Source of the DNA: a virus
Length of the DNA stretch: 64,000 bases
Virus record (IMG/VR): IMGVR_UViG_3300000115_000007
Coordinates: 27,664-91,663 of that record
Direction: 5' to 3' (one strand)
Shown: in pieces, positions 27,847-48,723 of the stretch
Numbering within the stretch: position 1 is the stretch's first letter
How the letters are laid out: each line of letters begins with the position of its first letter
Notes under the pieces: generated by a model
Seen by the model: only the letters and a program-made list of their open reading frames with translations
The model's database searches: none
Told to the model about the DNA's origin: nothing
Translations under genes and position numbers: made by a program

Positions 27847-27858
27847 TGAAAAAAAGTA

Positions 27859-27866: not shown

Positions 27867-27926
27867 TAACTAACACAAATTAATATTTTTAGTATTGCAA
27901 TTTGAACATATTAAGAGGAAATAAAT

Positions 27927-34593: not shown

Positions 34594-34818
34594 ATGAAAA
34601 GACAATATATACAAATCGAAGGTCAATCGGCATTAGTAAAAGACATTAGTTCGGGGGCTATTTTAAACGTCAACAACGAGTCTATAAATAAGGCTAGAAA
34701 TAGAAAAATTAGAGAAGCTGAAAAAGAAAAAGAACTTGTTGAATTAAAAAATGACGTAAGCGAGATAAAAAAAATGTTATCAGCATTAACAAAGAAAATG
34801 GTAGATCAAAATGGCTAG
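34594..34818 (+). CDS. conserved small protein following VrlC-like gene
   Basis: LVKD..SGAILN ... LKNDVSEIK.ML coiled-coil; contains TATAAATA at 34683-34690. Confidence 0.72.
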   Translation: MKRQYIQIEGQSALVKDISSGAILNVNNESINKARNRKIREAEKEKELVELKNDVSEIKKMLSALTKKMVDQNG

Positions 34819-36256
34819 ACAAGTATACGTAGGTTTAAGTGACACGATTAATACTTTTAGAGTGAAAACTAATAATATTGCTGCTCAAATTGGAGATTTA
34901 GATAATCTTAGCACTGAATATGCTGGTCACGATTCAGACATAGTACAAGCTTTAAATTTTAGTAAAGATGTACGTCGTGCTTACACCGCATCAAACGGTA
35001 TTAAAAAAGTCAGCCTTAGCGGAATTATTACTGGTGACTCAAGCGGGACATTTTCGGTATCGGCAGGACACGGTCTTACTCAACTTGATAGTGGACTTGA
35101 GTTAACAGATATGGCAGGAAACACTGTTAAAGTACGAGATGCTGCCACTACCGGTAGATCAACGGATAAAGTAGTTACTAACGAGCAAATTTTAATCGGT
35201 GATGGAACTGGTTTCACATCTGCTCCTTTATCTCAAGATGTTCTTATGACAAATGCTGGTGTTGTAACAATTCAACCTGACGTTGTGACTAATACTAAGC
35301 TAGCTAATATGCCAGCAGTAACGATGAAAGTAAATGCAACAGGTTCAGTCGCTGATCCACAAGATTTGGCACTTGGAAATCATACTATTGTTGGTAGATT
35401 AGGTACAGGTGATATTAGTACGTTAACAGTTGGTACAAGCACAGTAATTGGTCGTACAACATCTGGTGATATCATAGCAGCTCAGGCCGCAACAGATCAA
35501 ATAGCTGATGATGCTGTGACTAATGCTAAGCTTGCTAATATGCCAGCAAATTCAGTAAAAGTTGGAAATAGTTCTTCAGCAGCAGATCCTTCAGATATCA
35601 CAGTAGCAGACACTCAAATTCTAATTGGTGATGGTGATGGATTTACCGCTGCAGCATTATCTGGTCATGTTACTATGACAAATGCTGGTGCGTGTACGGT
35701 TTCTGGAGGCGAAGCCGATTTTGTAAAAGTTGATGAAAAAAATGACGATGTAAATTACCAAGTATTATTTAGCGATAATAATGGCTCAGGTTATCAAAGA
35801 CCTTATATTGATACTGATGATGGACATATGATGTACAATCCATCATCACAAACATTATCTGCCGGTACACTTGCTGGTAATGCTGCAACTGCAAACTTTG
35901 CGGATTTAGCTGAGAAATATACTACAAGTGAAGAGCATCCGGTTGGAACAGTGATGATGGCATCATATAATAAAACTGAAGAAACTACTCCTTGCACATC
36001 AAGCGGAATTCCAGTAGGCGTAGTTTCAGCTCAACCTGCTTATTTAATGAATGCAGATGCGCCAGGCCAAGCTTTAGGTCTTAAGGGAAGAGTTCCAGTA
36101 AGGGTTGTTGGCGGGGTTCATAAAGGTGATCCAGTGTATACGCATCATAATGGCTGTGCAAGTAAAGAATTTAATGGAGCTATGATGGTAGGTGTAGCTT
36201 TAGAATCGTCTACTGTAGATGAAGAAAAATTGATAGAATGTGTCCTTAAAGTGTAA
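34811..36256 (+). CDS. tail fibre-like protein with C-terminal autocleaving chaperone (peptidase G2-like) domain
   Basis: SDTINTFRVKTN N-terminus, VTNxKLANMPA repeats, ADLAEKY...GVVS.QPAYLMN...LKGRVPVRV.G...KGD. Confidence 0.75.
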   Translation: MARQVYVGLSDTINTFRVKTNNIAAQIGDLDNLSTEYAGHDSDIVQALNFSKDVRRAYTASNGIKKVSLSGIITGDSSGTFSVSAGHGLTQLDSGLELTDMAGNTVKVRDAATTGRSTDKVVTNEQILIGDGTGFTSAPLSQDVLMTNAGVVTIQPDVVTNTKLANMPAVTMKVNATGSVADPQDLALGNHTIVGRLGTGDISTLTVGTSTVIGRTTSGDIIAAQAATDQIADDAVTNAKLANMPANSVKVGNSSSAADPSDITVADTQILIGDGDGFTAAALSGHVTMTNAGACTVSGGEADFVKVDEKNDDVNYQVLFSDNNGSGYQRPYIDTDDGHMMYNPSSQTLSAGTLAGNAATANFADLAEKYTTSEEHPVGTVMMASYNKTEETTPCTSSGIPVGVVSAQPAYLMNADAPGQALGLKGRVPVRVVGGVHKGDPVYTHHNGCASKEFNGAMMVGVALESSTVDEEKLIECVLKV

Positions 36257-36298: not shown

Positions 36299-36826
36299 AT
36301 GATTAATAAATCTCAACTCATATCTGCACTTACTGCAAACCATATGTATGAACAAAATATGGTTTATGCTATAGATGAACATGGTCGTGAACAGCTAATT
36401 ACTAGCTTTAGCGATTTTTGTAAAGTGCAAAAACAAAACCATTCTATAAAAATCGAACGTATGGAAAACTTTAATTCAACAATATATGAATATTGTTGGA
36501 AAATAAAAACTGATTGGAAACATGAACAACATGTAACATGTCATTTATTTTTTGCGGGTGCTGGTTCTTATTCTTTTGATATGCATACCGATCCAGATGA
36601 TGTAGTTATATATTGCTGTGAAGGATCTAAGTCTTTAATAATTGATGATAAGCCAGTGACTATTATTCAAGGAGAATATATACATATACCAGCTTATACA
36701 CCTCATCAAGCATTAAATAAAGATGAAGCATTAACTTTAAGCTTTGGTTTAGAAAATTATACAGAGGATAAAATTAATAATGAACTGGCTGATGTATCTC
36801 AAAACAACAGAAACATGTCAGCTTAA
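36299..36826 (+). CDS. JmjC/cupin Fe(II)/2OG oxygenase (ribosomal oxygenase-like)
   Basis: SFDMHTDPDDV...EGSK...IHIPAYTPHQA (HxD...H). Confidence 0.78.
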   Translation: MINKSQLISALTANHMYEQNMVYAIDEHGREQLITSFSDFCKVQKQNHSIKIERMENFNSTIYEYCWKIKTDWKHEQHVTCHLFFAGAGSYSFDMHTDPDDVVIYCCEGSKSLIIDDKPVTIIQGEYIHIPAYTPHQALNKDEALTLSFGLENYTEDKINNELADVSQNNRNMSA

Positions 36827-37799
36827 TTGTGCGCATTGTTTTACAAGCGGAAGAAGCGGTCAAAAGATTTATTGGAATACTGATAAGCTAGTTGACTGGA
36901 TTCATAGATTTAGAAAAGAAAAACCTGCAGCACAAGATTCTATACATATGGAATTTCATGGCGGTGAACCGTTTCTTGTGCCGGTTGGCCAAATGCGAAA
37001 GGTATATGATGCATGTGATGGTTTATGGGATCAAATGTCGTGGGGTGCCACAACTAATTTAGTTTTTAAATTAAAAGATCAGCATATGGATTTTATTAAA
37101 GGTCCTCTTGGAAATAGACTTGGCACATCGTGGGATCGTAAGATTCGATTTGAAAATAAAAACCAATATAATCTTTGGCATAAAAATGTTAAAACACTTT
37201 TGGCAGATGGTGTTACTATTCGTTTGTTTATTAGTCTTACAAAAGATACACTTGCAAAAGATCCTATAGTATTATTAAGATGGTGCCGCCGACTTGGTGT
37301 ACAAGAAGTTTCACTGGAAAGACTAACTAATAATGGTAGTGCCCGAGAAGCATCAGAAATATTTCCAAGCAATAAAGAACTTGATGAATATTTTTTAAAA
37401 ATGCACATGCAAAGTGAAGAGCACGGAGCACGAGATTGGTTTGAAAACGACTTTCTAGAAAATGTATATGCTAAGTTTGAAAAGACTATGACTACGTGTG
37501 GAACATTTTGTAGAGATTGTGAACAAAAACTATTTACTATAAATGGTGATGGAACTATTGCAGGATGTCCAAACAGCGCGCCAGAACAAGCCTTTGGAAG
37601 TTTAGACGATTCAATTGATACATTGTTAAAAAGTCCAAAAAGAATTCGTACTATATTAGAAGAAAAAATGCGTAATCCTAATTGTTTATCTTGCCCTGTA
37701 TCTAGATTTTGTGGCGGTGATTGTCATCAATTAGGATGGGATGGAGATATTTGTGGCGCGCCAAAAAGTTTAATGATGGAACTCGCAAAACATGTATAA
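36780..37799 (+). CDS. radical SAM / SPASM-domain protein
   Basis: CQLNCAHC, FHGGEPFL, C-terminal C..C...GCPN...CLSC....FCGGDC....C. Confidence 0.92.
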   Translation: MNWLMYLKTTETCQLNCAHCFTSGRSGQKIYWNTDKLVDWIHRFRKEKPAAQDSIHMEFHGGEPFLVPVGQMRKVYDACDGLWDQMSWGATTNLVFKLKDQHMDFIKGPLGNRLGTSWDRKIRFENKNQYNLWHKNVKTLLADGVTIRLFISLTKDTLAKDPIVLLRWCRRLGVQEVSLERLTNNGSAREASEIFPSNKELDEYFLKMHMQSEEHGARDWFENDFLENVYAKFEKTMTTCGTFCRDCEQKLFTINGDGTIAGCPNSAPEQAFGSLDDSIDTLLKSPKRIRTILEEKMRNPNCLSCPVSRFCGGDCHQLGWDGDICGAPKSLMMELAKHV

Positions 37800-37802
37800 A
37801 TA
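37795..37802 (+). promoter_or_regulatory. T4-type late promoter inside the cluster
   Basis: TATAAATA ending 26 nt upstream of ATG 37829. Confidence 0.7.
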
Positions 37803-37828
37803 CACCTATATAACGAAAGAGAAATGAA

Positions 37829-38392
37829 ATGGCCACATTAACAAATCCAATCACTGCACAGAATATAATAGATAGATTTGCGGATTTTGCACCGGCGGCT
37901 GCTAATTCTGGTATTGTTTGGGGTACCAACTCAGTTCCGTTTAGTGGATTTTCTACATCATATTTTGGTGGAACGACTGCTGGTCGAAGTATTGGAATTA
38001 CTGGAGCTGATATAAATCAAAATCCAATCACTGCTTCTGTTATTAATACAGCAATTGAAAATGAAACCGCTGCATATAGTCAAATTAGAAATTTAAATGC
38101 AACCCGAACAGTAACAGGTCCTGGTGGTAATACAGGATCATATCCTAATCCTGGACAAATTTTTAATCAAACAGCAAAAGCATATTTAAGTAGTAGTTAT
38201 GCACAAACGCTATCTGCGGCCGGAGTCACTTTAACTGCTGGTACTCAAATTAGTGCATCTGGGCTTGAAGCTAAATTCGCAGACTTACAAACTCGTTTTA
38301 ATAGTCTAGTTTCTAATACTGTTACTGTAAATGTTAATATTTGTCATGCTAGTTGTCATAGCAGTTGCCACGCCGCGAGAGGAAGAAGATGA
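37829..38392 (+). CDS. probable virion protein with C-terminal Cys/His repeat (candidate radical SAM substrate)
   Basis: Ala/Thr/Ser/Gly/Asn-rich; all 3 Cys and 3 His are in terminal CHASCHSSCHAARGRR; own late promoter. Confidence 0.75.
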   Translation: MATLTNPITAQNIIDRFADFAPAAANSGIVWGTNSVPFSGFSTSYFGGTTAGRSIGITGADINQNPITASVINTAIENETAAYSQIRNLNATRTVTGPGGNTGSYPNPGQIFNQTAKAYLSSSYAQTLSAAGVTLTAGTQISASGLEAKFADLQTRFNSLVSNTVTVNVNICHASCHSSCHAARGRR

Positions 38393-39036
38393 AAGTTATT
38401 GATGTTACTGCACCATTTAGTATTGAAGATTTGAAATTGTATTTTGAAGATGATCAAACTTTTTATATGGTTGATTATGAAAATTCGCAATTGCAGGGAA
38501 CAAAACTATTAACATATCTTAGTAATCTGGAATTGCCATGTAATATTGGTTTTACTGATCAGAAAGATTTTGATGATCTTACTAGAGAATATCTTTTAGC
38601 TAATTTTATTATAAGTGTTCCTATTCTTGAAGAAAGAGTAATTAGTTTATTATTGCAGATGAAAGGTATTAGTGAATTAATAGAAAAAGATTTTATTGAT
38701 GATAACGTTGAAATACTTACTACTTGGGCAAAGAAATTAGATTCACTTTCGCTTTACAATCTGTACACTGTTGAATGTGATGAATTAAAAGACTACGTTA
38801 AATCATTTCCAGAAGATGACACGAAAGATTTAACTGGAATAAATTTTGTAAATTTGCTTAAATACGAAAGCTTTTATTTATTTTATGTCAATGTAATTGA
38901 ACATCATAAAACATATTATAAATCATATTTTAATGAGTATATGTTTAAAGGAAATAATTTATTTAGCTATTGGGCAAATGTTAATAACCCAATGTTTTTA
39001 CTAACAAGTTCAATCGCCACAGGAGAACAGTTATGA
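38389..39036 (+). CDS. hypothetical protein of the radical SAM cluster
   Basis: ATGA-coupled start at 38389 (MKVIDVTAPF); acidic, no recognised motif. Confidence 0.75.
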   Translation: MKVIDVTAPFSIEDLKLYFEDDQTFYMVDYENSQLQGTKLLTYLSNLELPCNIGFTDQKDFDDLTREYLLANFIISVPILEERVISLLLQMKGISELIEKDFIDDNVEILTTWAKKLDSLSLYNLYTVECDELKDYVKSFPEDDTKDLTGINFVNLLKYESFYLFYVNVIEHHKTYYKSYFNEYMFKGNNLFSYWANVNNPMFLLTSSIATGEQL

Positions 39037-40181
39037 TACATCTGTTTAAGAAGATTTATGTAACAACAGATAATATCATCGATCTGGGATATGATCGGAT
39101 TGTAGTATCACAAAATCATGGATTAGATGTTTTAGAAGATTTACAAAAAATATCTTCAGGCAAACTTATCTCATATTCATTAGAATGGAGTGGAATACTA
39201 GGATCAAAAGATGTAACATATCCAACCGCAATAGATTTATTTACTAAATTAGCAGATCACTGTGATGCTACAGATAAAAGAGTTATTATATATTGTGATG
39301 ATGATTCATTGCAATTCATAATGTCAACATGGTATAAACATATTCTAAAAACACCAACTAAAGAGTCTGTTAAATCGCTTCTACAAGCTCATGCATTTAA
39401 ATTTAATGTATTCTTTAGAGGTCGTTTTTCTGGTAATGGTGGAAATGTTGGTACTGAAGAAATTTTAAAATTAACAAATTTCGATACTATTTACGATAGC
39501 GTAAAAGCAGGTTCATCTGCCAAACGAAAAACTTTTGTTAAAAAATATATTAACACTATTGGTGTAGAACATTTATTTGCAAATTATTTACATAATAAAT
39601 CTACAAAAGAAGAACTAAAAAGTGTAATAAAAATACTACTAAAAAAAGATCTAGAAAAGTATTTGTATGAGTTAAAAGAAATATTTTTCCAGCATTTCTT
39701 AACTAAAAAAGTCGCGGACAAATTTAATTTAAATGCATCATATAATTTTGATAATATTAGTAATATTTTAGATGATACTAGCGATATTGCTCAAGTTTTT
39801 ATTAAAGATGATATGTGGGTATCAAAATATATGAGTACAGCTTCAAGCAACAATAACGTTTTGTTTGATAATATTTCAGCTTCAGATTTAGTAACAATTA
39901 GAAAATTTACACAAATTATTGCTGATGGTTGGTCTCAATTTAAAGTATATGATGCCGGAAAAAGTGATGTAAATAAATTAGATTTCATCGAATGTATAAC
40001 TGGAGAATTTACTGATACTTTATTAGATAGTCTCATTGAAATGGAATCTACATATGATAATGAATCTGGTTCATTTTTCTCTTTAGAACTGGAAACGGTT
40101 AATCATTATTTGATACATTCTTTATTAGATGCAAATTCTAATGCAGATGCAGCCTTTTTGAGTAGGTATATCACAGTGTAA
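39033..40181 (+). CDS. hypothetical protein of the radical SAM cluster
   Basis: 382-aa coupled ORF, AGGAG SD; VIIYCD motif. Confidence 0.78.
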   Translation: MIHLFKKIYVTTDNIIDLGYDRIVVSQNHGLDVLEDLQKISSGKLISYSLEWSGILGSKDVTYPTAIDLFTKLADHCDATDKRVIIYCDDDSLQFIMSTWYKHILKTPTKESVKSLLQAHAFKFNVFFRGRFSGNGGNVGTEEILKLTNFDTIYDSVKAGSSAKRKTFVKKYINTIGVEHLFANYLHNKSTKEELKSVIKILLKKDLEKYLYELKEIFFQHFLTKKVADKFNLNASYNFDNISNILDDTSDIAQVFIKDDMWVSKYMSTASSNNNVLFDNISASDLVTIRKFTQIIADGWSQFKVYDAGKSDVNKLDFIECITGEFTDTLLDSLIEMESTYDNESGSFFSLELETVNHYLIHSLLDANSNADAAFLSRYITV

Positions 40182-40182
40182 T

Positions 40183-41202
40183 ATGTCTATATATGATATA
40201 TTAGAAAACAAAATAACAACTTATGGTGAGATTGTATGTTGTTTATTTGAGCACTGTAATCTTCAGTGTGTTTTCTGTCCTCAAGATCATAATTCAATAG
40301 AAGGTGCTAACCGTGATTCTATCATGGCAAAAGTTCCTCAAATTGTAGAATGGATTAATAACAATAGAAGAACACAATCCTATAAATTACATTTAATGGG
40401 TGGCGAACTCTTTCAAGATGAATGGATAGATAAAGGTTTCCTAGAAATATATCAGGACTTTATTGATTCTATCATAGTACAAACAGAAGCTGATGTACAT
40501 ATTAATTTTATAACTAATTTATGCTTTACAAAGTCCGATATGGTAATGGATTTTTTAGAACATAATAATTTAACTATTTCTGTAAGTTACGATCCTGCTG
40601 GCAGATTTACTCCAAAAGCACATGATATTTTTGTTTCAAATATTGAAACATATAAAAATAAGATTGAAATGATTTCATTAGTTGCCACAAAACAAAACAT
40701 TGCAAAAATTACAAGAGGTGATAACTTATTCACGTACCTTTATAATACATATCCATGCGACTTTGATTCATTTTTGCCATCAGTAAAAAATTCAAAAAAA
40801 TTAATGCCAAGTGAAAGAACTCTTTTTGAGTTTAATAAACTACTTGTATCTAAATATCCTAAATGTTTAAACGTAGATCATTTCGTTAATCAAAAAATGC
40901 AAAATAAAATGATTTGCACAAGAGGTAATTCTCTTACTGTCATGCCAGATGGATCTATTCCTACTGGATGTTCTGGTGCAGTATTTTTAAAAGAAGCTCA
41001 AACTGAAGAACTTGGTGGACCAAAAATAGTTGAAAACTTTATGACTAAATATAATTGCTTTGAGTGTGAGTATTTTGCTCGATGCCCATTTAGTTGTTTT
41101 ATTAAACAAGATTATAAACACATTGAACAAGACATGGATGAATGTGTCTTTAAAGAGACTTTTAAATATGCAGATAGCCTTTATCAACCCACCGCATGCT
41201 GA
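40183..41202 (+). CDS. radical SAM protein with SPASM/twitch-like C-terminus
   Basis: CNLQCVFC, LMGGELF, ICTRG...TGC...CFECEYFARCPFSC...C. Confidence 0.9.
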   Translation: MSIYDILENKITTYGEIVCCLFEHCNLQCVFCPQDHNSIEGANRDSIMAKVPQIVEWINNNRRTQSYKLHLMGGELFQDEWIDKGFLEIYQDFIDSIIVQTEADVHINFITNLCFTKSDMVMDFLEHNNLTISVSYDPAGRFTPKAHDIFVSNIETYKNKIEMISLVATKQNIAKITRGDNLFTYLYNTYPCDFDSFLPSVKNSKKLMPSERTLFEFNKLLVSKYPKCLNVDHFVNQKMQNKMICTRGNSLTVMPDGSIPTGCSGAVFLKEAQTEELGGPKIVENFMTKYNCFECEYFARCPFSCFIKQDYKHIEQDMDECVFKETFKYADSLYQPTAC

Positions 41203-42838
41203 TTGGTCATTAGCCAATAATATGACTTATTTAATAGCTCAAAGCTATTATAAGCATTTTGGAAAATACAGTGATCAAATAGAATGGTTAGAATCTTCTT
41301 ATAAATGGAATACTTATCAATCGTTTGATGAAGCAATTGAGCAGGTGATATCTGCTGATATAATAATGTTTTCTTCATATGCTTGGAACTATGTCATTTG
41401 TGATGGAATAGCTTCTAAGATAAAACAAAAACATCCTGAAAAATTATTAGTATTGGGTGGGCCGCATATAGGAACTAATGATCCTGAACTATTAGCAAAT
41501 AGAACTCAATATGATTATATATGTCAGCCAACTAAACCAGGTGAAATATTTATGAGAGATCTGATCGATCAATACATTGAAAACAAGCTTGATCCCAAAA
41601 CTATTTCTTGGGAGTTAAGATCCAGTATTGGTGATATTCATAATATTAGTAAAGAAGATTATTCTGTATATGAAGAGCATTCTGAGTATTTAACTAGAGC
41701 CCTCTCATATGCTCAAGAAAATAATATGGAGCCATTTATTATTCTTGAAACAACTCGAGGATGTCCTTATAAATGTGTGTTTTGTGAATGGGGTGGAGGT
41801 ATTAATACTAAAATTTATAAAAAGGATTTGAGTATTGTAAAACGAGACATTGATGCTATGATCAAAGCTGGATATCGAGATGCATATTTAACTGATGCAA
41901 ACTTTGGCGCGTTTGAAGATAGAGACATAGAAATATTTGCATATGCTTGGAATAAAGGATTTAATCTAACTGATATATCGACTATGAAATCAAAAGATTT
42001 AAATAGAAGAAAAAGATTAATTGATAGATGGTTTGAAGTAGTCGGTACAGATCAAAGATCACCTAACTCAAAAGATGGTAACGATATGTGGAAAGAGACT
42101 TCAATGATGTCTATTGTTCCAACTGTATCAATTCAAAGTAGCTCTGATATTGCTATGAAATTAGCAGAAAGAGTTGATTTGAATTCAGAAGATAAGTTAG
42201 AATTAAGTAAATACATTAACAAAAGATGCAGTGAAAATGGTTTTCCTATTCCATCATTAGAATTAATTTTAGCAATGCCAGGATCTACAATAGATGATTT
42301 CTATAAAGAAATGGATTACATATGGAACTTTCAAGCTTTTGGATCGTATCGGCATGACTATATGTTTTTACCTGATTCTAGACTTAATTCTCAAGAATAT
42401 AAAATTAAACATGATATCAGAACAGTAGAAGTATTTACTGATATTGTGGATGAACAAGGGACTGATAGTTGGAGTGAACTATATAAAGATAAAAGATCAT
42501 ATTTTAGAACTATGGCATCATGCTTTTCATTTACAACTGAGGAAATGCATGAGATGTGGTTTATGAATAATGCAGGTAATTACTTACTACAACATTTTTA
42601 TCCAGCGTTTGAAGATGATTTAACACCTCCAGTTTTTGCTAAAGAAGCATATAAAATTATAATAGAGTTAGATAACTGGGATAATATATACTATGAGATC
42701 AGAGATATTTTTAATCCAAATTCACCACCAAAAAGCATAAGACAATTAGGAGATAAATTTAGAACTGAAACTATACATGAATTTTTAGAAAAAAATAAAA
42801 TTATAATTATGTCGGAGGTAAGCAAAATATGTGCATAA
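41168..42838 (+). CDS. cobalamin-binding radical SAM enzyme (class B methyltransferase-like)
   Basis: Start MQIAFINPP at 41168; FSSYAWN...LVLGGPH B12-binding-type domain; ETTRGCPYKCVFCEWG; TDANFG. Confidence 0.85.
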   Translation: MQIAFINPPHADWSLANNMTYLIAQSYYKHFGKYSDQIEWLESSYKWNTYQSFDEAIEQVISADIIMFSSYAWNYVICDGIASKIKQKHPEKLLVLGGPHIGTNDPELLANRTQYDYICQPTKPGEIFMRDLIDQYIENKLDPKTISWELRSSIGDIHNISKEDYSVYEEHSEYLTRALSYAQENNMEPFIILETTRGCPYKCVFCEWGGGINTKIYKKDLSIVKRDIDAMIKAGYRDAYLTDANFGAFEDRDIEIFAYAWNKGFNLTDISTMKSKDLNRRKRLIDRWFEVVGTDQRSPNSKDGNDMWKETSMMSIVPTVSIQSSSDIAMKLAERVDLNSEDKLELSKYINKRCSENGFPIPSLELILAMPGSTIDDFYKEMDYIWNFQAFGSYRHDYMFLPDSRLNSQEYKIKHDIRTVEVFTDIVDEQGTDSWSELYKDKRSYFRTMASCFSFTTEEMHEMWFMNNAGNYLLQHFYPAFEDDLTPPVFAKEAYKIIIELDNWDNIYYEIRDIFNPNSPPKSIRQLGDKFRTETIHEFLEKNKIIIMSEVSKICA

Positions 42839-43335
42839 AAGATATTTACACAAAAGGATATGTTAAATTGCGAGAAGCCGAAGGTCTGACATTAATTGGA
42901 GCAGATAATTTTAAGCTTTTAAACACAGAAGAAAGAGCAAGAGATAATGGTGAACAAGACGTTGAGCCATTACTTGCTACTAAACTTGATATGTTCGGTC
43001 AATACCTATACAATAAATACATTTTACCAGAATGGCCAAAAGCCGTTTTTAATAAGTATTTAATATGGGATGGTGTTGATAAAGATAACCAGGGTTGGCA
43101 TACTGATATGTTTGAAAAATATGATGTGTTTTTCTTATATTATTTAGATGATACATTTGCCGAAACTGGTGGGAATATAGATTTTAAATGGAATAAATCA
43201 GAAACAATTTCATTTCAACCAAAAGCGGGTGATTTATTTATGGTATCTAATATACGTGGATTTTGGCATAAAGCAGGTCAATCTTCAATACAACGAAGGG
43301 TATGTTCATTTGACTTTAATACAAACAATAGTTGA
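42829..43335 (+). CDS. Fe(II)/2OG-dependent oxygenase
   Basis: WHTD, FLYYLDD, GG, PKAGD, FWHK, RRV. Confidence 0.82.
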   Translation: MCIKDIYTKGYVKLREAEGLTLIGADNFKLLNTEERARDNGEQDVEPLLATKLDMFGQYLYNKYILPEWPKAVFNKYLIWDGVDKDNQGWHTDMFEKYDVFFLYYLDDTFAETGGNIDFKWNKSETISFQPKAGDLFMVSNIRGFWHKAGQSSIQRRVCSFDFNTNNS

Positions 43336-43609
43336 TAAAAAAGAAACTCTTTGCAAAGAAAGAGATTTGACAGCAGAACTATATAATCTTTGGATTACTA
43401 AATTGCATGATTTTGAGGATGATGAAAATAAATATGAGCAATATATGAAAATGATTGATAATCTTGAACCATATGCAAATATGTTAAAAGAAGAAATTAG
43501 ACAATGTAATAGAGAAATAATAGAACACTATGGTGTTAAATCAATAAATGAAACACCTTATGCAGTTGAGTGTGTTAATAAACACGGCTATGATAGGCCA
43601 AACGGATGA
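43310..43609 (+). CDS. hypothetical helical protein
   Basis: Probable TTG start at 43310 after GAAGGG; ATGA coupling to next gene. Confidence 0.6.
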   Translation: MTLIQTIVDKKETLCKERDLTAELYNLWITKLHDFEDDENKYEQYMKMIDNLEPYANMLKEEIRQCNREIIEHYGVKSINETPYAVECVNKHGYDRPNG

Positions 43610-44100
43610 ATGTTGGTATTTTAGTTCCAGAGCTATTAATGTCTGGATATAAGATTTTTAATGATAAAGAGATCTTATATTTAATAGGCAATATTCCTCC
43701 TGTTAATTCATGGACTATTAAATCAGACACAAGTGGAACATATACTCCAGATGAAAAAATAAATTTAGAACCAGCCCATGACTATATAAAAGATAATTAC
43801 GTTGATAAGTATTTTAATAATTCGACTAAAGGTTATAATAATATATGGAGTTCAACTGATGTAAATTCTATGTCATGGCATAATGATTTAGTCGAAGGAC
43901 CAAATTTATTTTTTATGTATTATTTAAATGATGTAATAAATGATGGTGAAATATGTTTTAGAATTAATGGTGAAGAAACTGGAAAAATAAAACCTAAAAA
44001 GGGATTACTCTTAATGGGATCTCAAGAATTATACGTTGAACATAAAGTCAATCACACAGATGAAACTCGTGCGGTTTGTAATTTTGGGTTCTATGTGTAA
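43606..44100 (+). CDS. Fe(II)/2OG-dependent oxygenase
   Basis: WHND, FMYYLND, IKPKKG, VEHKV, TRAV. Confidence 0.82.
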   Translation: MNVGILVPELLMSGYKIFNDKEILYLIGNIPPVNSWTIKSDTSGTYTPDEKINLEPAHDYIKDNYVDKYFNNSTKGYNNIWSSTDVNSMSWHNDLVEGPNLFFMYYLNDVINDGEICFRINGEETGKIKPKKGLLLMGSQELYVEHKVNHTDETRAVCNFGFYV

Positions 44101-45134
44101 TGGATCTAATTGTCAAACCAACAGAATTATGTAATTTTAAATGTTCATTTTGTTCATCATCTAAAATTACGTTTGAGGATAATACTGCTACTCTTGATCT
44201 AAATAAGATATTTAAGTTTTTAAAACGTTTTCCAGACACTCAAACAATTATTGTTAATGGTGGTGATCCATTAATGATGAAACCAAATTACTATTGGAAA
44301 ATTATAGAGTATCTTGATAAATATGATCTGCCTGCAACAATATCGCTTACAACAAATTTATATCCATTTCTTATGAAACCAATGAAATGGAAAGAACTTT
44401 TTAACCATCCTCGAATTGGTGTAGCTACATCATTTCAATATGGAGGAGGGAGATTAAAAGGTGATTATAGTGAATTTACAGAAGAAGATTTTTGGAAGTG
44501 TTCAGATGCGATGCTAGAACATGTTGGATACAGACCAGCATTCATAGCCGTAATCGTTGAAGAAAACGAAGATACTCATATTAAGACAGTTGAACTTGCA
44601 AAGAAAATGAATGTAGTCTGTAAAGTAAATTATGCCATGGCATCAGGTTCACAGTCTGCGCCATATCAGTTATCAAAAATATATGAACGTTATATTGAAA
44701 TATGGAAAGCTGGATTAAGCGATTGGGAACATAACACTCAACAGATGATGGTACGACTAAGAGGAGAATCCACTATATGTCCTCAAACAAGAACATGTGA
44801 TTCTGGCATTCGAACACTTCAACCTGAAGGTGACTACTATTCGTGTGGTGCATTTGGCGATGATTTAGATAAGGCTATTGATTTTAATTACGAAATGAGT
44901 GGTGGATTTTCAACACCTCTTGCAACAGATTTAAGTTTAATGAGTTTGAAAAATGCATGTTATACTTGTCCTATGTTTGAAATTTGCAATGGTTGTAAAA
45001 AAACTATTAAAGATTTAAAACAACATAACATGGTAGAAGATCATTGTAAACATATGAAGACATTGGCTTTAGACATTATTAAAGCAAACGATATAAAACT
45101 AGAACCTACGCCTTATATAAGAGAATATGCATGA
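44100..45134 (+). CDS. radical SAM / SPASM-domain protein
   Basis: KPTELCNFKCSFC, NGGDPL, ICP....C...YSC...CYTC....ICNGC....HC. Confidence 0.92.
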   Translation: MDLIVKPTELCNFKCSFCSSSKITFEDNTATLDLNKIFKFLKRFPDTQTIIVNGGDPLMMKPNYYWKIIEYLDKYDLPATISLTTNLYPFLMKPMKWKELFNHPRIGVATSFQYGGGRLKGDYSEFTEEDFWKCSDAMLEHVGYRPAFIAVIVEENEDTHIKTVELAKKMNVVCKVNYAMASGSQSAPYQLSKIYERYIEIWKAGLSDWEHNTQQMMVRLRGESTICPQTRTCDSGIRTLQPEGDYYSCGAFGDDLDKAIDFNYEMSGGFSTPLATDLSLMSLKNACYTCPMFEICNGCKKTIKDLKQHNMVEDHCKHMKTLALDIIKANDIKLEPTPYIREYA

Positions 45135-45664
45135 ATTTAAAAGATGATTTTCATACAGTTGTTAGTAATAAAGATATTATTAAGTTAATGAGCAATATAG
45201 AAACTAATATATTTGCCGATGAAAGGCTTATAGATGATTTTGTACAAACAAAGAAATTTCTATCGCAGAATTATCCGTTTGAGTATGCAATTTTAATTAA
45301 TGTTGCAACTATAATTTCTAATACGCTGCTCGAGCCTGAATTTGGACCAGTTGAGTTAATTGAACATAAATTAAATAAAGGTCGGCACGATGGAAATACT
45401 GTATACCACTATGACAAAACAGGCGGGGATCATCCCGATGGCATATATAAAGACATAGATTTTATTTGTTTATATTATTTTAATACACTACAAACTGGCC
45501 CTCTTTGTATAAAAAATAAATATAACGAATACTTTTACTATCCAAAGAAGGGAAATTTAGCAATTATTAATGAATTGAATCCGACTGTTGAACATAAAAT
45601 AGAGCCTTATGATTGGAAAAATATAGAAAGATATACAGCTAGATTTGGTTTTAAACTTTTATGA
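45131..45664 (+). CDS. Fe(II)/2OG-dependent oxygenase
   Basis: YHYD, CLYYFN, YPKKG, VEHKI, RYT. Confidence 0.72.
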   Translation: MNLKDDFHTVVSNKDIIKLMSNIETNIFADERLIDDFVQTKKFLSQNYPFEYAILINVATIISNTLLEPEFGPVELIEHKLNKGRHDGNTVYHYDKTGGDHPDGIYKDIDFICLYYFNTLQTGPLCIKNKYNEYFYYPKKGNLAIINELNPTVEHKIEPYDWKNIERYTARFGFKLL

Positions 45665-46365
45665 AACTAGATTTCTTAGCCCCATATTATCAGAATATTG
45701 AAAATCCTTCAGAAGAAATTAAAATTAAAATTTCAGAAGAAAGTCCTAAAAGCTATGCTTTGACTCGTGCGCCAAATAGAATGAATTCAGATGGAAGAAT
45801 TAACTGTGAAGGATTATATGAGGATGGTGTTGTTGCTGTATCTGTTAGTCCTATAAATCCTAAATTTAGATCACAGATAGAAGATGGTGTATGGCCTTTT
45901 ATAGAGTGTTTAATTAATAAAAATTATTTTACTATGAGTTGTTGTGAAGGACACGACGATAGAATGGGCGATCATTTTTATATTACATTAGCCTCTCCTT
46001 GTAAGAATGAATTAAAAGTTATAGAAAATGAAGTCGAGCATATTATAGGTTGTAAAGTCACAAAGAAAGATTCAATCGCTAATAATACTATAGTTTGGCA
46101 TGAGGATGGTAATCAATTAAAAACTATAGAGACTAGGATTGTTGTAGATGCTGATGCCGAAGCTGAAGACATAAATAATATGTATTTAAGAAAGTATCCT
46201 CGTTATTATTTTTTAAAAATCGATATGTTTACTAATAAAGATGATATCTATTTTGAATTTAATTTAACCAATCTAAAAAATAGAATAATATATTTAATAT
46301 TCAATAAAAAAAGTTTAGCGGAGTTACTAAATAAATTTAAAAAATTACCTAGGTCTACAAAATGA
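45661..46365 (+). CDS. hypothetical protein (T.SC.GH motif)
   Basis: IEDGVWPFIECLINKNYFTMSCCEGH; weak resemblance to the Tyw3 N-terminus. Confidence 0.65.
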   Translation: MKLDFLAPYYQNIENPSEEIKIKISEESPKSYALTRAPNRMNSDGRINCEGLYEDGVVAVSVSPINPKFRSQIEDGVWPFIECLINKNYFTMSCCEGHDDRMGDHFYITLASPCKNELKVIENEVEHIIGCKVTKKDSIANNTIVWHEDGNQLKTIETRIVVDADAEAEDINNMYLRKYPRYYFLKIDMFTNKDDIYFEFNLTNLKNRIIYLIFNKKSLAELLNKFKKLPRSTK

Positions 46366-47270
46366 TCGTATCGATTAACCCCTCATATTTTTGTAATTTT
46401 AGATGTGATTTTTGTTATCTATCTACTAAACAACTTGGAGATCAAAAACAAATTTCATTTGATAAACTAGATGAGTTGTTATCTCAAGTGCCAGATATAG
46501 AACATGTTGACTTATATGGTGGTGAAGTTGGTGCAATGAAAAAGTCGTATTTTTATGGCATTAAAGATGTTATAAGAAAATATTATTCGGGTGAAATTAG
46601 CATCAATACTAATTATTCTATGATGCATCCAGGATTCTTTGATGATGATGTATATCTTGCTGTCTCATATGATTTTGAAGCAAGAGAAAAGTCTGAACTT
46701 GTATTTCAAAATATGTTAATGAGTACAGTACCTATTGCAGTTTTAGTTTTAGCATCTCCAAAGGTGCTAGAAAAAGATGTATCTGAAATGATTAATATGT
46801 TGAATATGTGTTCGTCAATTATGTCTGTTGAGATTAAACCATATTCAATTAATCAAGCAAATGCTCATAATGTTACACACAAAGACTTTGAAGATTTTGT
46901 TATAAAGTGGCTCAAGTTAAAAGACACTATGAAGTTTGAATTTGTAAATGAAAACAGAATTATAGAATCAATGAAAGGAAGATATAATGCATTTTCGGAT
47001 GATCATATATACATCACTCCTTCTGGCAAATTTGGTGTCTTGGAATTTGATGAAGAGGATAAAGAATTCTTTCTTGAATTGGATTCTTGGGAACAATACA
47101 TTGATTGGACAAACAAAGAAAAAGAAGAAATGATAAGTCCTATATGTGCCTCATGTAAGTATTTTGGAAACTGCTTAACAGAGCATTATCGATATGTCAA
47201 AGATTTAAATAATAGCTGTAACGGATATAGAGGATTATTGGATTGGTATCATGAAAGAATGGCAAGTTAA
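46362..47270 (+). CDS. radical SAM protein with short SPASM-like C-terminus
   Basis: NPSYFCNFRCDFC, LYGGEV, CASCKYFGNCLTEH...SCNG. Confidence 0.9.
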   Translation: MIVSINPSYFCNFRCDFCYLSTKQLGDQKQISFDKLDELLSQVPDIEHVDLYGGEVGAMKKSYFYGIKDVIRKYYSGEISINTNYSMMHPGFFDDDVYLAVSYDFEAREKSELVFQNMLMSTVPIAVLVLASPKVLEKDVSEMINMLNMCSSIMSVEIKPYSINQANAHNVTHKDFEDFVIKWLKLKDTMKFEFVNENRIIESMKGRYNAFSDDHIYITPSGKFGVLEFDEEDKEFFLELDSWEQYIDWTNKEKEEMISPICASCKYFGNCLTEHYRYVKDLNNSCNGYRGLLDWYHERMAS

Positions 47271-47655
47271 ACAAGAAGTTTATCATAGATTAAATAAAAA
47301 TCATACAGATGATTTGAATAAAGTAGAAATAGTTTTTGATGATAATCAAGAGGTTATTATTAAAAATGCTATTCGACACTTTAATGAGAAAGTAGATGAA
47401 TGGTTATATCCAGCCAAGAGTTATGTTGTAGCAATATGTTATGCTTATTGGATTAGTAGAGATTTTAACGAAGATTTTTATGATTTGTTAAATGAACCAA
47501 TGCTTTTAGCTGGTAATGATCCATATTTTAAAACATACGAAAATAGTAAGGAAATATACGATAGTATACTTAACAATATAGATTGGCCATTGATGGTAAT
47601 TCACGGTATGGTTCGGGATATAAAAGGATATTATGATGTTGAAATCGGGTATTAA
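47251..47655 (+). CDS. hypothetical protein of the radical SAM cluster
   Basis: 134 aa, YPAKSYVVAICYA...GNDPYF; overlaps neighbours. Confidence 0.72.
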   Translation: MKEWQVKQEVYHRLNKNHTDDLNKVEIVFDDNQEVIIKNAIRHFNEKVDEWLYPAKSYVVAICYAYWISRDFNEDFYDLLNEPMLLAGNDPYFKTYENSKEIYDSILNNIDWPLMVIHGMVRDIKGYYDVEIGY

Positions 47656-48196
47656 TCAGTGTTGGTCAACACCAATATATAAAACTCAAATTACTTCAGA
47701 CCAATGTGAAGAATTAGTTCAAGAAATTTTACTTAGTACTAATATTATGAAACCACAGGCTGAATACGACAGCGGTACACTTACAGATAAAATTCCATTG
47801 TTAAAAGATTTAGCTATAGAAAAATATACAGAATTTTTTAAAGAAGTATTTAGCATCGACCTAAATGATATGTCTTACGAATTTAGTTCTTGGTTAACAG
47901 GATCTCAAAAAGGATATTCAATGAATATTCATAATCATTCTGGAGCTCAATTTGCTGCAGTATTTTATGTTCTTTCTGACGATATTGATAAAGGTGGAGA
48001 ACTAGTGGCGTACGATCCAAGAGCAAATGCCAACAGAGGTTATTTTGGTAAAACCGCTGAAATGTTTAAACCTATTGAGTACGCACCTAAAACTGGTGAT
48101 GTAATAATTATGCCAGGATATGTTTATCATCTAGTAAAAACATATCACTCTAATCTTAGACTAGCTGTTCCAGTCGATATTTTTTTAAAATCATGA
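47633..48196 (+). CDS. Fe(II)/2OG-dependent oxygenase (TIGR02466-like)
   Basis: HNHSG..FAAVFYV, GGEL..YDPR, PKTGD.IIMPGYVYHLV, RLAV. Confidence 0.85.
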   Translation: MMLKSGINQCWSTPIYKTQITSDQCEELVQEILLSTNIMKPQAEYDSGTLTDKIPLLKDLAIEKYTEFFKEVFSIDLNDMSYEFSSWLTGSQKGYSMNIHNHSGAQFAAVFYVLSDDIDKGGELVAYDPRANANRGYFGKTAEMFKPIEYAPKTGDVIIMPGYVYHLVKTYHSNLRLAVPVDIFLKS

Positions 48197-48333: not shown

Positions 48334-48723
48334 ATGGCTCATTACGAAGATATAGAAATTGATCAAGGAACTGATGTTGTAATTCAATTGGAACTATATA
48401 ATCCAGACGGATCAAGAAAAACTTTACTTAACTGGGATTCAGATTTAGGAAGCTTTCACAATAATTATGACATGAGAGGTTATATTAAAAAAAGCTATAA
48501 CTCAACAGACTCAGCAGTTCAGTTTGGATGTACCGCATACAATCCACAAAATAAAGAAAATATTTTAGAGCTATCTTTAACTAATGTACAAACCGATGCA
48601 ATGCGCGCCGGCCGGTTTGTGTATGATGTTGAGATAGCGTCTACCGATAGTGACACTGGCATTGTAACAGTAGAACGCATTTTACAAGGGAATTTGACAT
48701 TAGTACCTTCAGTTACTAGATAG
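48334..48723 (+). CDS. virion structural protein (BppU-like adaptor fold)
   Basis: IEIDQGTD, LSLT..QT....AGRFVYDVEI, RILQG.....PSVTR. Confidence 0.75.
   Translation: MAHYEDIEIDQGTDVVIQLELYNPDGSRKTLLNWDSDLGSFHNNYDMRGYIKKSYNSTDSAVQFGCTAYNPQNKENILELSLTNVQTDAMRAGRFVYDVEIASTDSDTGIVTVERILQGNLTLVPSVTR

Follow-up and report, generated by a model that had tools for sequence, protein, structure and literature searches.

A conserved phage gene module of radical SAM enzymes and oxygenases beside tail-fibre genes, proposed to mature a small virion protein

Gene content of the cluster

The window examined here is a stretch of 64,000 nt from IMG/VR record IMGVR_UViG_3300000115_000007 (positions 27,664 to 91,663), from a T4-like marine phage in which a set of enzyme genes adjoins a tail-fibre gene. 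ORF calls between 36299 and 48196 bear out the 16 co-oriented, mostly overlapping or abutting plus-strand genes described in an earlier sequence-only reading. That reading had also placed the set among fibre genes, and a tail-fibre gene (34811) indeed lies upstream and a gene with a fibre-assembly PHROG match (48334) downstream. Genes are named below by their start positions.

34811..36256, +, tail-fibre protein, 481 aa, with a C-terminal intramolecular-chaperone region (DUF5907 27.9 bits; Peptidase_G2 IMC region)
36299..36826, +, cupin/JmjC-type Fe(II) oxygenase, 175 aa (Cupin_2 32.6 bits and JmjC_2 29.1 bits, both above cut-off)
36780..37799, +, radical SAM/SPASM enzyme 1, 339 aa (CX3CX2C at 13-20; phrog_1802 E 2e-58)
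37795..37802, +, T4 late-promoter-like motif TATAAATA, 27 nt before the 37829 start
37829..38392, +, candidate substrate, here SUB, 187 aa (compact alpha/beta domain 1-171, then a disordered C-terminal tail)
38342..38389, +, SUB tail C-H-A-S-C-H-S-S-C-H-A-A-R-G-R-R, residues 172-187, proposed modification site
38389..39036, +, conserved protein of about 215 aa (phrog_20767 E 5e-54)
39033..40181, +, conserved protein, 382 aa (residues 1-175 with a PTP/dual-specificity-phosphatase-like fold, then a helical domain)
40183..41202, +, radical SAM/SPASM enzyme 2, 339 aa (CX3CX2C at 25-32; SPASM core 292-305)
41168..42838, +, B12-binding radical SAM enzyme, class B type (B12-binding and radical SAM domains; CX3CX2C)
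42829..43335, +, small 2OG-Fe(II) oxygenase, 168 aa (PF13640, 2OG-FeII_Oxy_3, 24 bits, below cut-off; HTD...H)
43229..43609, +, small protein without a family match (homologues of 98-105 aa in 4 loci)
43606..44100, +, small 2OG-Fe(II) oxygenase, 164 aa (PF13640, 2OG-FeII_Oxy_3, 19.7 bits, below cut-off; HND...H)
44100..45134, +, radical SAM/SPASM enzyme 3, 344 aa (PF04055 35.9 bits, above cut-off; SPASM core 287-299)
45131..45664, +, possible 2OG oxygenase-like protein, 177 aa, weakly supported (HYD...H)
45661..46365, +, protein of 234 aa (sub-threshold HNH_4 match only; homologues in 4 loci)
46362..47270, +, radical SAM enzyme 4, 302 aa, with partial SPASM and a twitch-like C-terminus (PF04055 30.0 bits, above cut-off)
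47251..47655, +, conserved protein, 134 aa (phrog_20737 E 5e-37; in 21 loci)
47633..48196, +, 2OG-Fe(II) oxygenase, 187 aa (PF13759, 2OG-FeII_Oxy_5, 41.2 bits, above cut-off; phrog_81 E 7.5e-21)
48334..48723, +, small fibre-assembly-like protein (phrog_1084 and phrog_3304, "L-shaped tail fiber protein assembly")

Five of these proteins are radical SAM enzymes (three with full SPASM, one partial, and one B12-type); all have CX3CX2C, and these five, each matched in a record-wide search, are the only PF04055 matches in the whole 91.6-kb record. The SPASM core CX2CX5CX2-3C and an upstream C...G...C are present in 36780, 40183 (PF04055 21.1 bits) and 44100, and the eight SPASM cysteines of 36780 (244, 247, 263, 302, 305, 311, 315 and 325) are invariant in 25 homologues, with a TIGR04085 score of 35.6 bits (cut-off 27). 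These three enzymes belong to phrog_1802 together with 46362 (E 1.9e-30 for 40183, 4.5e-56 for 44100, and 9e-30 for 46362), the last having C-terminal cysteines only at 262, 265, 271 and 286. The B12-type enzyme, 41168, matches both of its domains just below gathering score (PF02310 27.2 bits, PF04055 27.4 bits), has a KedN5-type methyltransferase as its best NCBIfam match (E 3.7e-28), and is an accessory gene found in 15 loci, a minority of the related ones.

In NCBIfam the SPASM enzymes come closest to DynA (E 7.6e-12, and 3.4e-14 as the top match of 44100), anaerobic sulfatase maturase, PapB (E 1.9e-10), CXXX-repeat maturase, HxsB/HxsC and QhpD, all of them peptide- or protein-modifying maturases; since every one of these matches is far below its trusted cut-off, their chemistry cannot be transferred to the phage enzymes. 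No RRE (substrate-recognition) domain is recognizable in the radical SAM enzymes.

The oxygenases comprise one cupin/JmjC protein, three 2OG enzymes with HMM support, and a fourth 2OG candidate identified by motif and weak similarity. The cupin/JmjC protein has HTD at 96-98, and its homologue lies immediately upstream of the radical SAM gene in 64 loci. Whereas 42829 and 43606 are clear paralogues (pairwise E 6e-18), 45131 has zero HMM matches in Pfam and PHROG, and a weak BLASTP match to 43606 (E 0.004 over 63 residues) plus an HxD...H pattern makes a fifth oxygenase only plausible. Taken as a whole, Pfam, NCBIfam, PHROG and motif assignments uphold the enzyme families that had been read from the letters, including the JmjC oxygenase, the cobalamin-binding radical SAM enzyme, and the four SPASM/twitch-like radical SAM enzymes (46362 with only four cysteines of the motif); of the four small 2OG oxygenases, 42829, 43606 and 47633 stand and 45131 does not reach that level.

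The remaining proteins are of other kinds. The 38389 product, always directly after SUB and found in 82 loci, shows no conserved catalytic-type residues in an alignment of its homologues, and a protein atlas search with it yielded nothing. For 39033, the AF2 model (pLDDT 85) gave VIA-align results in which nearly all of the top 30 rows were PTP-fold proteins (best Z 7.8, rmsd 5.2, 146 aligned); the CX5R signature is absent and Cys is not invariant among homologues. Comparison of 39033 with the radical SAM enzymes found no relationship, and we rejected it as a relative of theirs. The 43229 ORF probably starts later than annotated and matched no family in Pfam and PHROG searches, and the 47251 homologue comes after radical SAM enzyme 4 in both phages and Bdellovibrionota. 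At the borders, 34811 (phrog_19602 tail fibre, and phrog_22593) is a conserved upstream neighbour whose homologues precede the module in 57 related loci, and 48334 is the downstream border, its homologues closing the module in 8 loci; an open frame of >4990 aa lies 3' of it. Profile searches of the cluster (Pfam and NCBIfam) detected no transporter, protease or immunity families, in agreement with the reported absence of a transporter, leader protease and immunity gene.

SUB, its tail, and linkage to radical SAM enzyme 1

The Cys/His repeat noticed at the end of 37829 is present: all three Cys and all three His of SUB fall within residues 172-181, with none elsewhere in the protein, in the pattern CHxS-CHxS-CHxx-RxRR-stop. 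In the AF2 model (pLDDT 85; tail 50-60) the globular domain is confident, and all of these residues are predicted to lie on the tail attached to it, which is disordered and accessible. Searches of Pfam, NCBIfam and PDB folds returned no match to SUB, and its relatives make up at least 464 unnamed clusters in metagenomes. SUB is preceded by a late-type motif of its own, as are baseplate and fibre genes; six of the nine further copies of TATAAATA in the window precede the start of a baseplate or fibre gene (14389, 24396, 27927, 34811, 48334 and 49029) by no more than ~130 nt.

To assess linkage we collected IMG/VR loci by homology to radical SAM enzyme 36780 alone, which gave 369 loci encoding relatives, and examined the best 80. 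In all 73 of these with enough downstream DNA, the next gene ends in three C-H-x-[S/N/A] units followed by R-x-R-R-stop. This co-occurrence check had been put forward as a refuting test, and homologues of enzyme 1 lacking a 37829-like gene numbered 0 of 73; the linkage between SUB and enzyme 1 is strict and non-circular. A separate search of IMG/VR with the tail motif found at least 119 contigs, as compared to ~0.01 chance matches expected by our own estimate. Because that search required the motif, the "invariant" columns of the resulting alignment (A1) are partly circular, and independent evidence for the motif consists only of the 73 radical SAM-selected loci and the cultured jumbo phages RSL2 and Atu_ph07, which were likewise picked by radical SAM homology only.

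Synteny extends over >100 loci in the order fibre, cupin, radical SAM enzyme 1, SUB, the conserved protein after it (u38365), 39033, radical SAM enzymes 2, 3 and 4, and 47251. RSL2 and Atu_ph07 keep this order (fibre, cupin, radical SAM, tail protein, two unknowns, three radical SAM paralogues), and their SUB homologues (RSL2 ORF068 and Atu_ph07 gp170) have the tail motif; their N-terminal domains can barely be aligned with that of the window SUB, yet the tail is retained. A further SUB homologue is S13 gp72. The gene order recurs on chromosomes of predatory Bdellovibrionota, beside proteins with fibre-chaperone domains, and in two Halobacteriovoraceae chromosomes the module adjoins an endosialidase-chaperone (Peptidase_S74) fibre-domain protein, as in phages. 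Judged from sequence homology, the module is present in hundreds of phages and in predatory bacteria. Our literature search found no functional study of it, the genes appearing only in annotation lists, which accords with the earlier statement that no characterized phage system resembles it.

Published proteomics place a SUB homologue in virions: gp170 of Atu_ph07, listed with a mass of 31.89 kDa, was detected with 8 peptides and 35% coverage (PMC6102473), and our computed mass agrees with the listed one. Fibre homologue gp176 is also in these virions, while the homologues of the radical SAM enzymes, cupin and u38365 (gp165-169 and gp171-172) are absent from the virion list (PMC6102473). Within the gel, gp170 is most abundant in the top band, band 1, where proteins of 87-127 kDa peak, and other 30-kDa Atu_ph07 proteins peak in bands 7-8 (PMC6102473). 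These positions are taken from a single supplementary table, where many proteins are smeared over several bands; an SDS-stable oligomer instead of a covalent link could account for the anomalous position of gp170. The presence of gp170 and absence of the enzymes in virions, and the late-promoter motif before SUB, favour the original proposal of a virion component over a secreted peptide.

Relation to known systems

The nearest known analogue is the bacterial HXS anti-phage system, in which the effector HxsA with His-Xaa-Ser repeats is accompanied by radical SAM enzymes HxsB and HxsC and the small HxsD (Li et al. 2026, PMC13128918), the modification being reported on an S-H-x-S-S motif with +8 Da (PMC13128918). 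In HXS, and by our proposal in the phage too, a whole protein with basic repeats instead of a short peptide is matured by several radical SAM enzymes together with a small partner, and HMM similarity to HxsB (E 1.6e-8) and HxsC (E 1e-6) is weak. Scores are, however, 10-fold under the family cut-offs (HxsB 33.8 compared to 370, HxsC 27.7 compared to 267.9), and we rejected membership of the cluster in HXS. The phage repeat is C-H-x-[S/N/A], with Cys invariant and Ser replaceable, SUB lacks a peptidoglycan-binding domain and signal sequence, and the phage module has oxygenases and a B12 enzyme in addition; moreover, SUB is a virion protein of the attacker, whereas the HXS effector belongs to periplasmic defence.

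The RiPP maturases (DynA/DarE, PapB ranthipeptides, HaaB/HtkB triceptide cyclophane synthases, and TIGR04115), which make three-residue or thioether crosslinks, share CX3CX2C and full SPASM with the phage enzymes and act on substrates with short periodic Cys- or His-containing C-terminal motifs; HtkB is reported to form a His-C2 to Lys-C-beta link. All scores are nonetheless far under trusted cut-offs, the phage module has no leader peptide, RRE domain, protease or exporter, and its "precursor" is a folded structural protein of 170-300 aa, intact in virions. QhpD, likewise of the radical SAM/SPASM type, introduces intraprotein Cys thioethers into a quinohemoprotein amine dehydrogenase subunit (QhpC), and offers a case of Cys crosslinking in a small protein that stays in a larger assembly; TIGR03906 matches of 36780 and 40183 are weak (25 and 19 bits, as compared to a cut-off of 453), and the QhpC substrate is unrelated and part of a dehydrogenase, not a viral structure. 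SUB also recalls T4-type fibre accessories (gp38-type adhesins/chaperones) in its small size and its position after a fibre gene, and its Cys/His residues could bind metal, T4 fibres having His-bound metal sites; Pfam, PHROG and PDB-fold searches nevertheless found no sequence or fold similarity to such accessories, and we know of no fibre accessory protein that needs radical SAM enzymes.

A proposed maturation route and its alternatives

With moderate confidence, we propose that SUB, a small virion protein of the tail-fibre apparatus, is matured post-translationally by the products of this conserved module. The Cys/His-rich C-terminal tail of SUB is most likely the target of the enzymes. Gene content, the strict linkage of SUB to enzyme 1, motif conservation and the location of a homologue in virions are observed, whereas the tail as target, the kind of reaction and the function in the particle are inferred. 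Enzyme 36780, and probably its paralogues 40183, 44100 and 46362, would abstract hydrogen atoms in the tail and install carbon-sulfur or carbon-carbon crosslinks, whether thioethers from Cys or three-residue rings joining His to a beta-carbon. The cupin/JmjC and 2OG oxygenases would hydroxylate His, Arg or Asn-type side chains, and the B12 radical SAM enzyme, where present, would add a C-methyl group, while 38389 and 39033 probably have no catalytic role and assist by presenting the substrate. The enzymes would remain in the cell, and matured SUB would enter the particle with the fibre encoded just upstream, its rigid, basic, Cys/His-derived tail then serving as a crosslinking, metal-binding or receptor-contacting element. 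Against this proposal speak the lack of a recognizable RRE domain and the unusually large enzyme load that O2-dependent oxygenases together with O2-sensitive radical SAM enzymes would constitute for one 16-residue tail; some of the enzymes may have other targets, e.g. the giant 49029 product or the fibre itself.

It is unlikely that the enzymes act altogether elsewhere, e.g. on a small molecule, on fibre proteins or on the giant 49029 product, leaving SUB as a Cys/His metal- or Fe-S-binding accessory, for example a metal-stabilized fibre cap (compare the His-bound iron of the T4 fibre) or a protein that supplies the radical SAM enzymes with clusters or electrons. Three regularly spaced Cys-His pairs could plausibly form a metal site, a single 16-residue tail is a small target for as many as five radical SAM enzymes and five oxygenases, and large fibre genes are always beside the module. 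Yet across very divergent SUB domains only the tail and the position directly after the radical SAM gene are kept, as in the enzyme-substrate pairs of radical SAM peptide systems; peptides bearing Cys or His motifs are the substrates of all the nearest enzyme families; and an enzyme donor is not expected in virions that lack the enzymes.

We regard as quite improbable a true RiPP or cofactor pathway, in which the SUB domain would be a large leader and cleavage would release the modified tail as a free small molecule that might serve as a metallophore, redox cofactor or host-manipulating peptide. The architecture (radical SAM/SPASM enzyme, C-terminal core, small partners, and tailoring oxygenases) fits such a pathway, PQQ and mycofactocin being made from the C-terminus of a carrier peptide, and free-living predators carry the module on their chromosomes as well. 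Against this, the conserved core has no peptidase or exporter, the Atu_ph07 homologue of SUB resides in the virion, SUB is preceded by a promoter motif of the late structural type, and fibre genes accompany the module in phages and Bdellovibrionota alike. Extremely improbable is a DNA, nucleotide, sugar or lipid hypermodification or auxiliary-metabolism cluster only incidentally near SUB: phage DNA-modification and metabolic clusters do include radical SAM and 2OG enzymes, PF13759 oxygenases are common, uncharacterized cyanophage genes, and 43606 weakly matches a PHROG labelled endonuclease V, but profile searches of the module show no kinase, transferase, glycosyltransferase or nucleotide-binding family, SUB is linked in 73 of 73 loci (from the best 80 of 369), and the module lies within the late structural block, apart from the replication genes.

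Enzymes and genomic setting of the cluster

The 16 ORFs between 36299 and 48196, all on the + strand and mostly overlapping, include five radical SAM enzymes, a count that the sequence-only reading had given and that stands: 36780, 40183, 44100 and 46362 (here rSAM 1 to 4) and the B12-binding enzyme 41168 all carry CX3CX2C near the N-terminus, and these five are the only PF04055 matches in the whole record. One phage family, phrog_1802, is common to rSAM 1 to 4. The seven-Cys SPASM motif (C..G..C, CX2CX5CX3C, C; two auxiliary clusters) is complete in 36780, 40183 and 44100; 36780 passes the SPASM domain model TIGR04085 (35.6 bits, cut-off 27), with the SPASM cysteines invariant in the homologue alignment, and 46362 keeps only four of these cysteines, a partial or twitch-like motif. 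In 41168 an N-terminal B12-binding domain precedes the radical SAM core, each scoring slightly below its Pfam cut-off (27.2 against 32.1 and 27.4 against 29.5), an arrangement like that of class B (cobalamin-dependent) radical SAM methyltransferases, to which 41168 may belong; the match to the KedN5 subfamily scores 98 bits against a cut-off of 700. As to the five Fe/2OG oxygenases proposed earlier, the cupin/JmjC protein 36299 and the 2OG oxygenase 47633 exceed their family HMM cut-offs and have the HxD/E...H iron triad, and the paralogous small 2OG oxygenases 42829 and 43606 have the triad with HMM scores below cut-off; the fifth, 45131, is not firmly established, a triad pattern and a weak pairwise match being all that speaks for it. 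Five cluster proteins have no family assignment.

The nearest named SPASM relatives are DynA, PapB, the CXXX-repeat maturase, HxsB/HxsC, QhpD and the anaerobic sulfatase maturase, all of them enzymes that mature peptides or proteins at motifs with Cys or His. All scores fall far below the family cut-offs, so that the phage SPASM enzymes form a separate subfamily whose reaction cannot be read from these relatives.

The source contig (91.6 kb, linear, viral, about 44% complete) belongs to a divergent T4-like myovirus; the closest cultured relatives of its gp6 homologue (Phage C48C1, Pelagibacter phage HTVC008M and Methylophilales phages) are 33–40% identical. Downstream of the baseplate genes follow, in order, a 1745-aa protein, the fibre protein 34811, the cluster, a fibre-assembly-like protein and a giant open frame.

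Features of the window
14389 to 29339, homologues of T4 gp48, gp53, gp5, gp25, gp6, gp7 and gp8
29355–34592, 1745-aa protein matching phrog_358 (1191 bits) and phrog_877, neither of known function
34811, fibre protein of 481 aa with an intramolecular-chaperone region
49029–63998, + strand, single open frame of >4990 aa, directly 3' of the module and exceeding the window end

Related contigs have large homologues of the 1745-aa protein (about 1750–2030 aa), likewise two genes ahead of the module. The giant frame has no PHROG match at E ≤ 1e-5; near the module of Agrobacterium phage Atu_ph07 lies gp180, a 4450-aa "T4-like structural protein" absent from the virion proteome list of that phage. 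GC content is 0.29–0.31 in the enzyme part (38000–48000), lower than the 0.35–0.39 of the flanking structural genes.

A tail-motif protein linked to the radical SAM enzyme

The candidate substrate is the 187-aa product of gene 37829 (hereafter SUB), which has exactly three Cys and three His, all within residues 172–181, and ends C-H-A-S-C-H-S-S-C-H-A-A-R-G-R-R; we call these 16 residues the tail. AlphaFold2 (39 homologues) predicts residues 1–171 as a confident compact alpha/beta domain (mean pLDDT 85) and the tail as disordered (pLDDT 50–60). A Foldseek search of the PDB with this model gave nothing at E ≤ 0.001, and the best VIA-align match (Z 4.3) was at noise level, so no similar solved structure was found; by its model, then, SUB is predicted to be a globular protein with an exposed tail rather than a fibre itself. 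No Pfam domain was found in SUB, and its relatives in metagenomes (at least 464 protein clusters) are all unnamed and likewise without Pfam domains. Proteins of the family are folded and 124–309 aa long. The number of C-H-x-S units varies among homologues, with six in two loci (L117, L240) and four in two others (L241, L247), and one variant has two sets of three, four residues apart.

A DNA pattern for the tail retrieves at least 119 IMG/VR contigs, where we estimate a chance expectation of about 0.01. Because such a search selects for the motif itself, we instead gathered loci by homology to the radical SAM enzyme 36780, which has relatives at no fewer than 369 viral loci in IMG/VR. The best 80 of these were examined, and seven were too short downstream; in all of the remaining 73 the gene after the radical SAM gene ends in three C-H-x-[S/N/A] units followed by R-x-R-R-stop. 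Cys is invariant, and the third position is strictly Ser in 57 of the 73, with Asn or Ala instead in 16, so that the Ser position may vary, but Cys, His, the basic end and the spacing of four residues do not. Homologous enzymes lacking a 37829-like gene, which the sequence-only reading had named beforehand as counting against it, did not occur among these 73 loci.

Cultured phages show the same arrangement. A search with the radical SAM neighbour of SUB returned 15 records at 41–51% identity, all jumbo phages of Agrobacterium, Sinorhizobium, Ralstonia, Burkholderia and Pseudomonas. Ralstonia phage RSL2 and Atu_ph07 share the order small cupin, radical SAM enzyme, tail-motif protein, and their tail proteins end C-H-x-S-C-H-x-S-C-H-x-S-R-x-R-R-stop. 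These homologues were reached only through synteny and the motif: neither megablast of the cluster nor tblastn of SUB against cultured phages gave a match, the SUB bodies being too divergent, and BLASTP of SUB against its RSL2 and Atu_ph07 counterparts aligned little beyond the C-terminal 26–50 residues.

Gene maps of about 120 loci give one recurrent order, which opens with a 34811-like fibre gene, cupin, rSAM 1, SUB, the 38389 and 39033 families and rSAM 2, continues with an optional B12 enzyme and small oxygenases, then rSAM 3 and rSAM 4, and closes with the 47251 family, a 2OG oxygenase and a fibre-assembly-like protein. All four radical SAM paralogue groups are represented once per locus, which suggests four distinct, old roles for them. 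A second layout (L003, L014, L020, L035, L047, L048, L055, L063–L065, L113 and others) places two tandem short SUB genes (124–140 aa), with a conserved "QLRTFDK" stretch in the N-terminus, directly 3' of the fibre gene; seven ORFs of about 250–420 aa follow, only two of which give weak radical SAM or Fe-S hits, and the cupin and radical SAM set lies farther along or is inverted. Among the conserved proteins without an assigned role, the 38389 family shows, in its alignment, no conservation of catalytic-type residues, whether His, Cys or acidic, and the protein atlas returned nothing for its window member (38365). The 39033 family (39033–40181) is unrelated to the radical SAM family in profile–profile comparison. 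It gives a confident model whose first 175 residues resemble the PTP/dual-specificity phosphatase fold, which fills nearly all of the top 30 rows of a fold search (best Z 7.8, rmsd 5.2 Å, 146 residues aligned). The family lacks the CX5R signature and its Cys is not invariant; as a weak lead from this model, 39033 might be a non-catalytic binding module, possibly a pseudo-phosphatase.

The module also extends to bacteria. In species-representative prokaryote genomes the tail motif stands at an ORF end in 26 loci, roughly 19 of them in Bdellovibrionota, where the radical SAM, cupin, 38389-family and 47251-family genes are always alongside; the other five of the 31 genome matches lie elsewhere than at the end of an ORF and are due to chance (one Pseudobdellovibrionaceae MAG contig, Thauera, Pseudoclavibacter and two Streptomyces). 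The complete module on chromosomes of predatory Bdellovibrionota (GTDB loci L226–L249; G001:C1 at about 300–315 kb; G002:C7 at about 254–267 kb, L255–L258) comprises SUB, 4–6 radical SAM genes, cupin/2OG oxygenases, the 38389 and 47251 families and sometimes the B12 enzyme. Mis-binned phage contigs can be rejected as its source for at least two genomes, both Halobacteriovoraceae, in which the contigs that carry it are 1.29 Mb and 382 kb long, the former with flanking housekeeping genes (serine dehydratase, Mrp/NUBPL ATPase, lytic transglycosylase and penicillin-binding protein). Both of these modules adjoin a protein with the endosialidase-chaperone domain (Peptidase_S74) that is typical of trimeric fibres. 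In viruses and bacterial predators alike, then, the module is associated with a fibre that bears a chaperone. A transglutaminase-elicitor-like protein and a clostripain-family peptidase also lie near the module in G002.

Virion residence of a homologue and late-promoter motifs

The sequence-only reading had placed the product in the virion rather than among secreted peptides, and this is supported by a homologue, the phage of the window itself being uncultured. In the proteome of purified Atu_ph07 particles (PMC6102473, Supplementary Table S5), gp170 is listed at 31.89 kDa, the mass that we compute for the Atu_ph07 SUB homologue, with 8 unique peptides and 35% coverage. It occurs in gel bands 1–9 and peaks in band 1, as do proteins of 87–127 kDa, whereas other proteins of ~30 kDa peak in bands 7–8 (PMC6102473). 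The fibre homologue gp176 and also gp177 were detected in these virions; gp165–169 and gp171–172, which correspond to three radical SAM enzymes, the cupin and the 38389 homologue, are absent from the virion list (PMC6102473). With gp170 present in particles mainly in band 1 and the enzymes unlisted, this SUB homologue is a structural protein, its band position being read as a much larger species that resists boiling in SDS, with the enzymes left behind. No SUB homologue could be mapped in the PhiRP31 virion proteome, and the S13 paper contains no proteomics.

The T4 late-promoter consensus, TATAAATA, stands 27 nt before the SUB start, and no other cluster gene has a copy ahead of it. The window has 10 copies (13836, 14343, 24362, 27859, 34683, 37795, 48266, 48289, 48293 and 48979) where 13 are expected, so the total is at chance level and placement alone is informative. 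Seven copies (14343, 24362, 27859, 34683, 37795, 48293 and 48979) lie no more than ~130 nt upstream of the start of a structural gene; apart from the copy of SUB, this holds for six of nine, each before a baseplate or fibre gene. Such placement is as expected of T4-type late promoters.

Relation to known systems and a proposed maturation

In logic, the closest known system is the bacterial HXS defence, in which HxsA, which carries five basic His-x-Ser repeats, is matured by a pair of radical SAM enzymes together with a small protein; an S-H-x-S-S motif becomes heavier by 8 Da, and the matured HxsA keeps phage DNA from entering (PMC13128918). The phage tail likewise holds H-x-S units, but its Cys is essential and its Ser replaceable (16 of 73 loci). 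The phage enzymes score 33.8 bits with HxsB (TIGR03978) and 27.7 with HxsC (TIGR03977), about one-tenth of the trusted cut-offs of 370 and 267.9, and SUB has neither a peptidoglycan-binding domain nor an export signal, whereas an HXS effector binds peptidoglycan and is exported to the periplasm; the module is therefore not a member of HXS. Thioethers made by a SPASM enzyme inside a small protein subunit have a precedent in QhpD/QhpC. With the CXXX-repeat maturase system (TIGR04115) SUB shares three C-x-x-x units, and the phage enzyme matches that maturase over the N-terminal 60 residues only (37.9 against 350 bits). Formylglycine formation of the anaerobic-sulfatase type on the last unit, C-H-x-x-R, is just a possibility, given an enzyme score far below cut-off (TIGR03942, 41.3 against 349 bits) and a poor fit to the sulfatase motif C/S-x-P/A-x-R, which the unit resembles only loosely; no sulfatase gene is present. 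Nor is the module a classical secreted RiPP cluster, which would have a short precursor with a leader, a peptidase to remove it, and a gene for export or immunity; SUB is a folded protein, and the module has no leader, protease or exporter: as the sequence-only reading had noted for transporter, leader protease and immunity genes, profile searches found no peptidase, transporter or immunity family in the cluster, nor do the gene maps place any in the conserved core.

In the phage literature we found the module genes only as annotation entries of FLC6, S13, RSF1/RSL2 and PhiRP12/31, and literature on radical SAM enzymes of phages, Bdellovibrio and Atu_ph07 and on phage RiPPs gave annotation lists and one remark on Fe-S genes, in a study that counted up to 12 radical SAM genes plus Fe-S assembly genes in marine T4-like genomes (PMC5332604, Nishimura 2017).

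Within the tail, Cys and His are invariant and the free third position always has a beta-carbon, a pattern that fits either a thioether from Cys or a three-residue ring from His to the beta-carbon. Known members of the JmjC-type cupin family (PF08007 ribosomal oxygenases) hydroxylate protein His or Arg, and both residue types occur in the tail. We propose that the tail would be crosslinked, in one of these two ways, and hydroxylated stepwise in the cytoplasm, with C-methylation optional, and that matured SUB would then be incorporated together with the upstream fibre. A complex prediction of 36780 with SUB, SAM and three 4Fe-4S clusters (score 0.03, mark 0.32) speaks neither for nor against binding. 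We think it probable that at least one of these enzymes acts on SUB, and somewhat less surely that the modified product stays in the virion; for the two combined, SUB modified by module enzymes and kept in the particle, our confidence is slightly lower again, though still favourable. A post-translational assembly line for a virion component, as first put forward from the sequence, has thus gained independent support from the 73/73 linkage and from gp170 in virions, and the phage module is probably a case in which a conserved virion protein is matured by radical SAM/SPASM enzymes.

Radical SAM/SPASM chemistry has so far been known from secreted peptides, a few enzyme subunits and, since 2026, one bacterial anti-phage effector; viruses apparently use the same logic on a component of their own particle. 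If the tail really is modified, this would be a new type of virion maturation, would account for the many Fe-S enzymes and assembly genes observed in marine T4-like phages in 2017, and would provide new crosslinking enzymes with a defined 16-residue substrate. A further reading, which we regard as doubtful, is that an ancient dedicated line of four radical SAM/SPASM paralogues and Fe oxygenases, common to T4-like phages, jumbo phages and predatory Bdellovibrionota, makes the Cys/His tail of a fibre-associated protein into a polycyclic "warhead", perhaps one that binds metal or forms covalent crosslinks, with which the envelope of Gram-negative prey is recognized or breached; it might then be the offensive counterpart of HXS, in which radical SAM-matured HxS repeats block DNA entry, and would constitute a new class of RiPP-style chemistry on the structural proteins of invaders. 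The module is widespread: relatives of its first enzyme occur in at least 369 viral contigs, SUB forms at least 464 unnamed protein clusters, and the module itself is present in cultivable jumbo phages and in predatory bacteria. Since cultured phages carry it, mass spectrometry and genetics can be brought to bear on the question directly.
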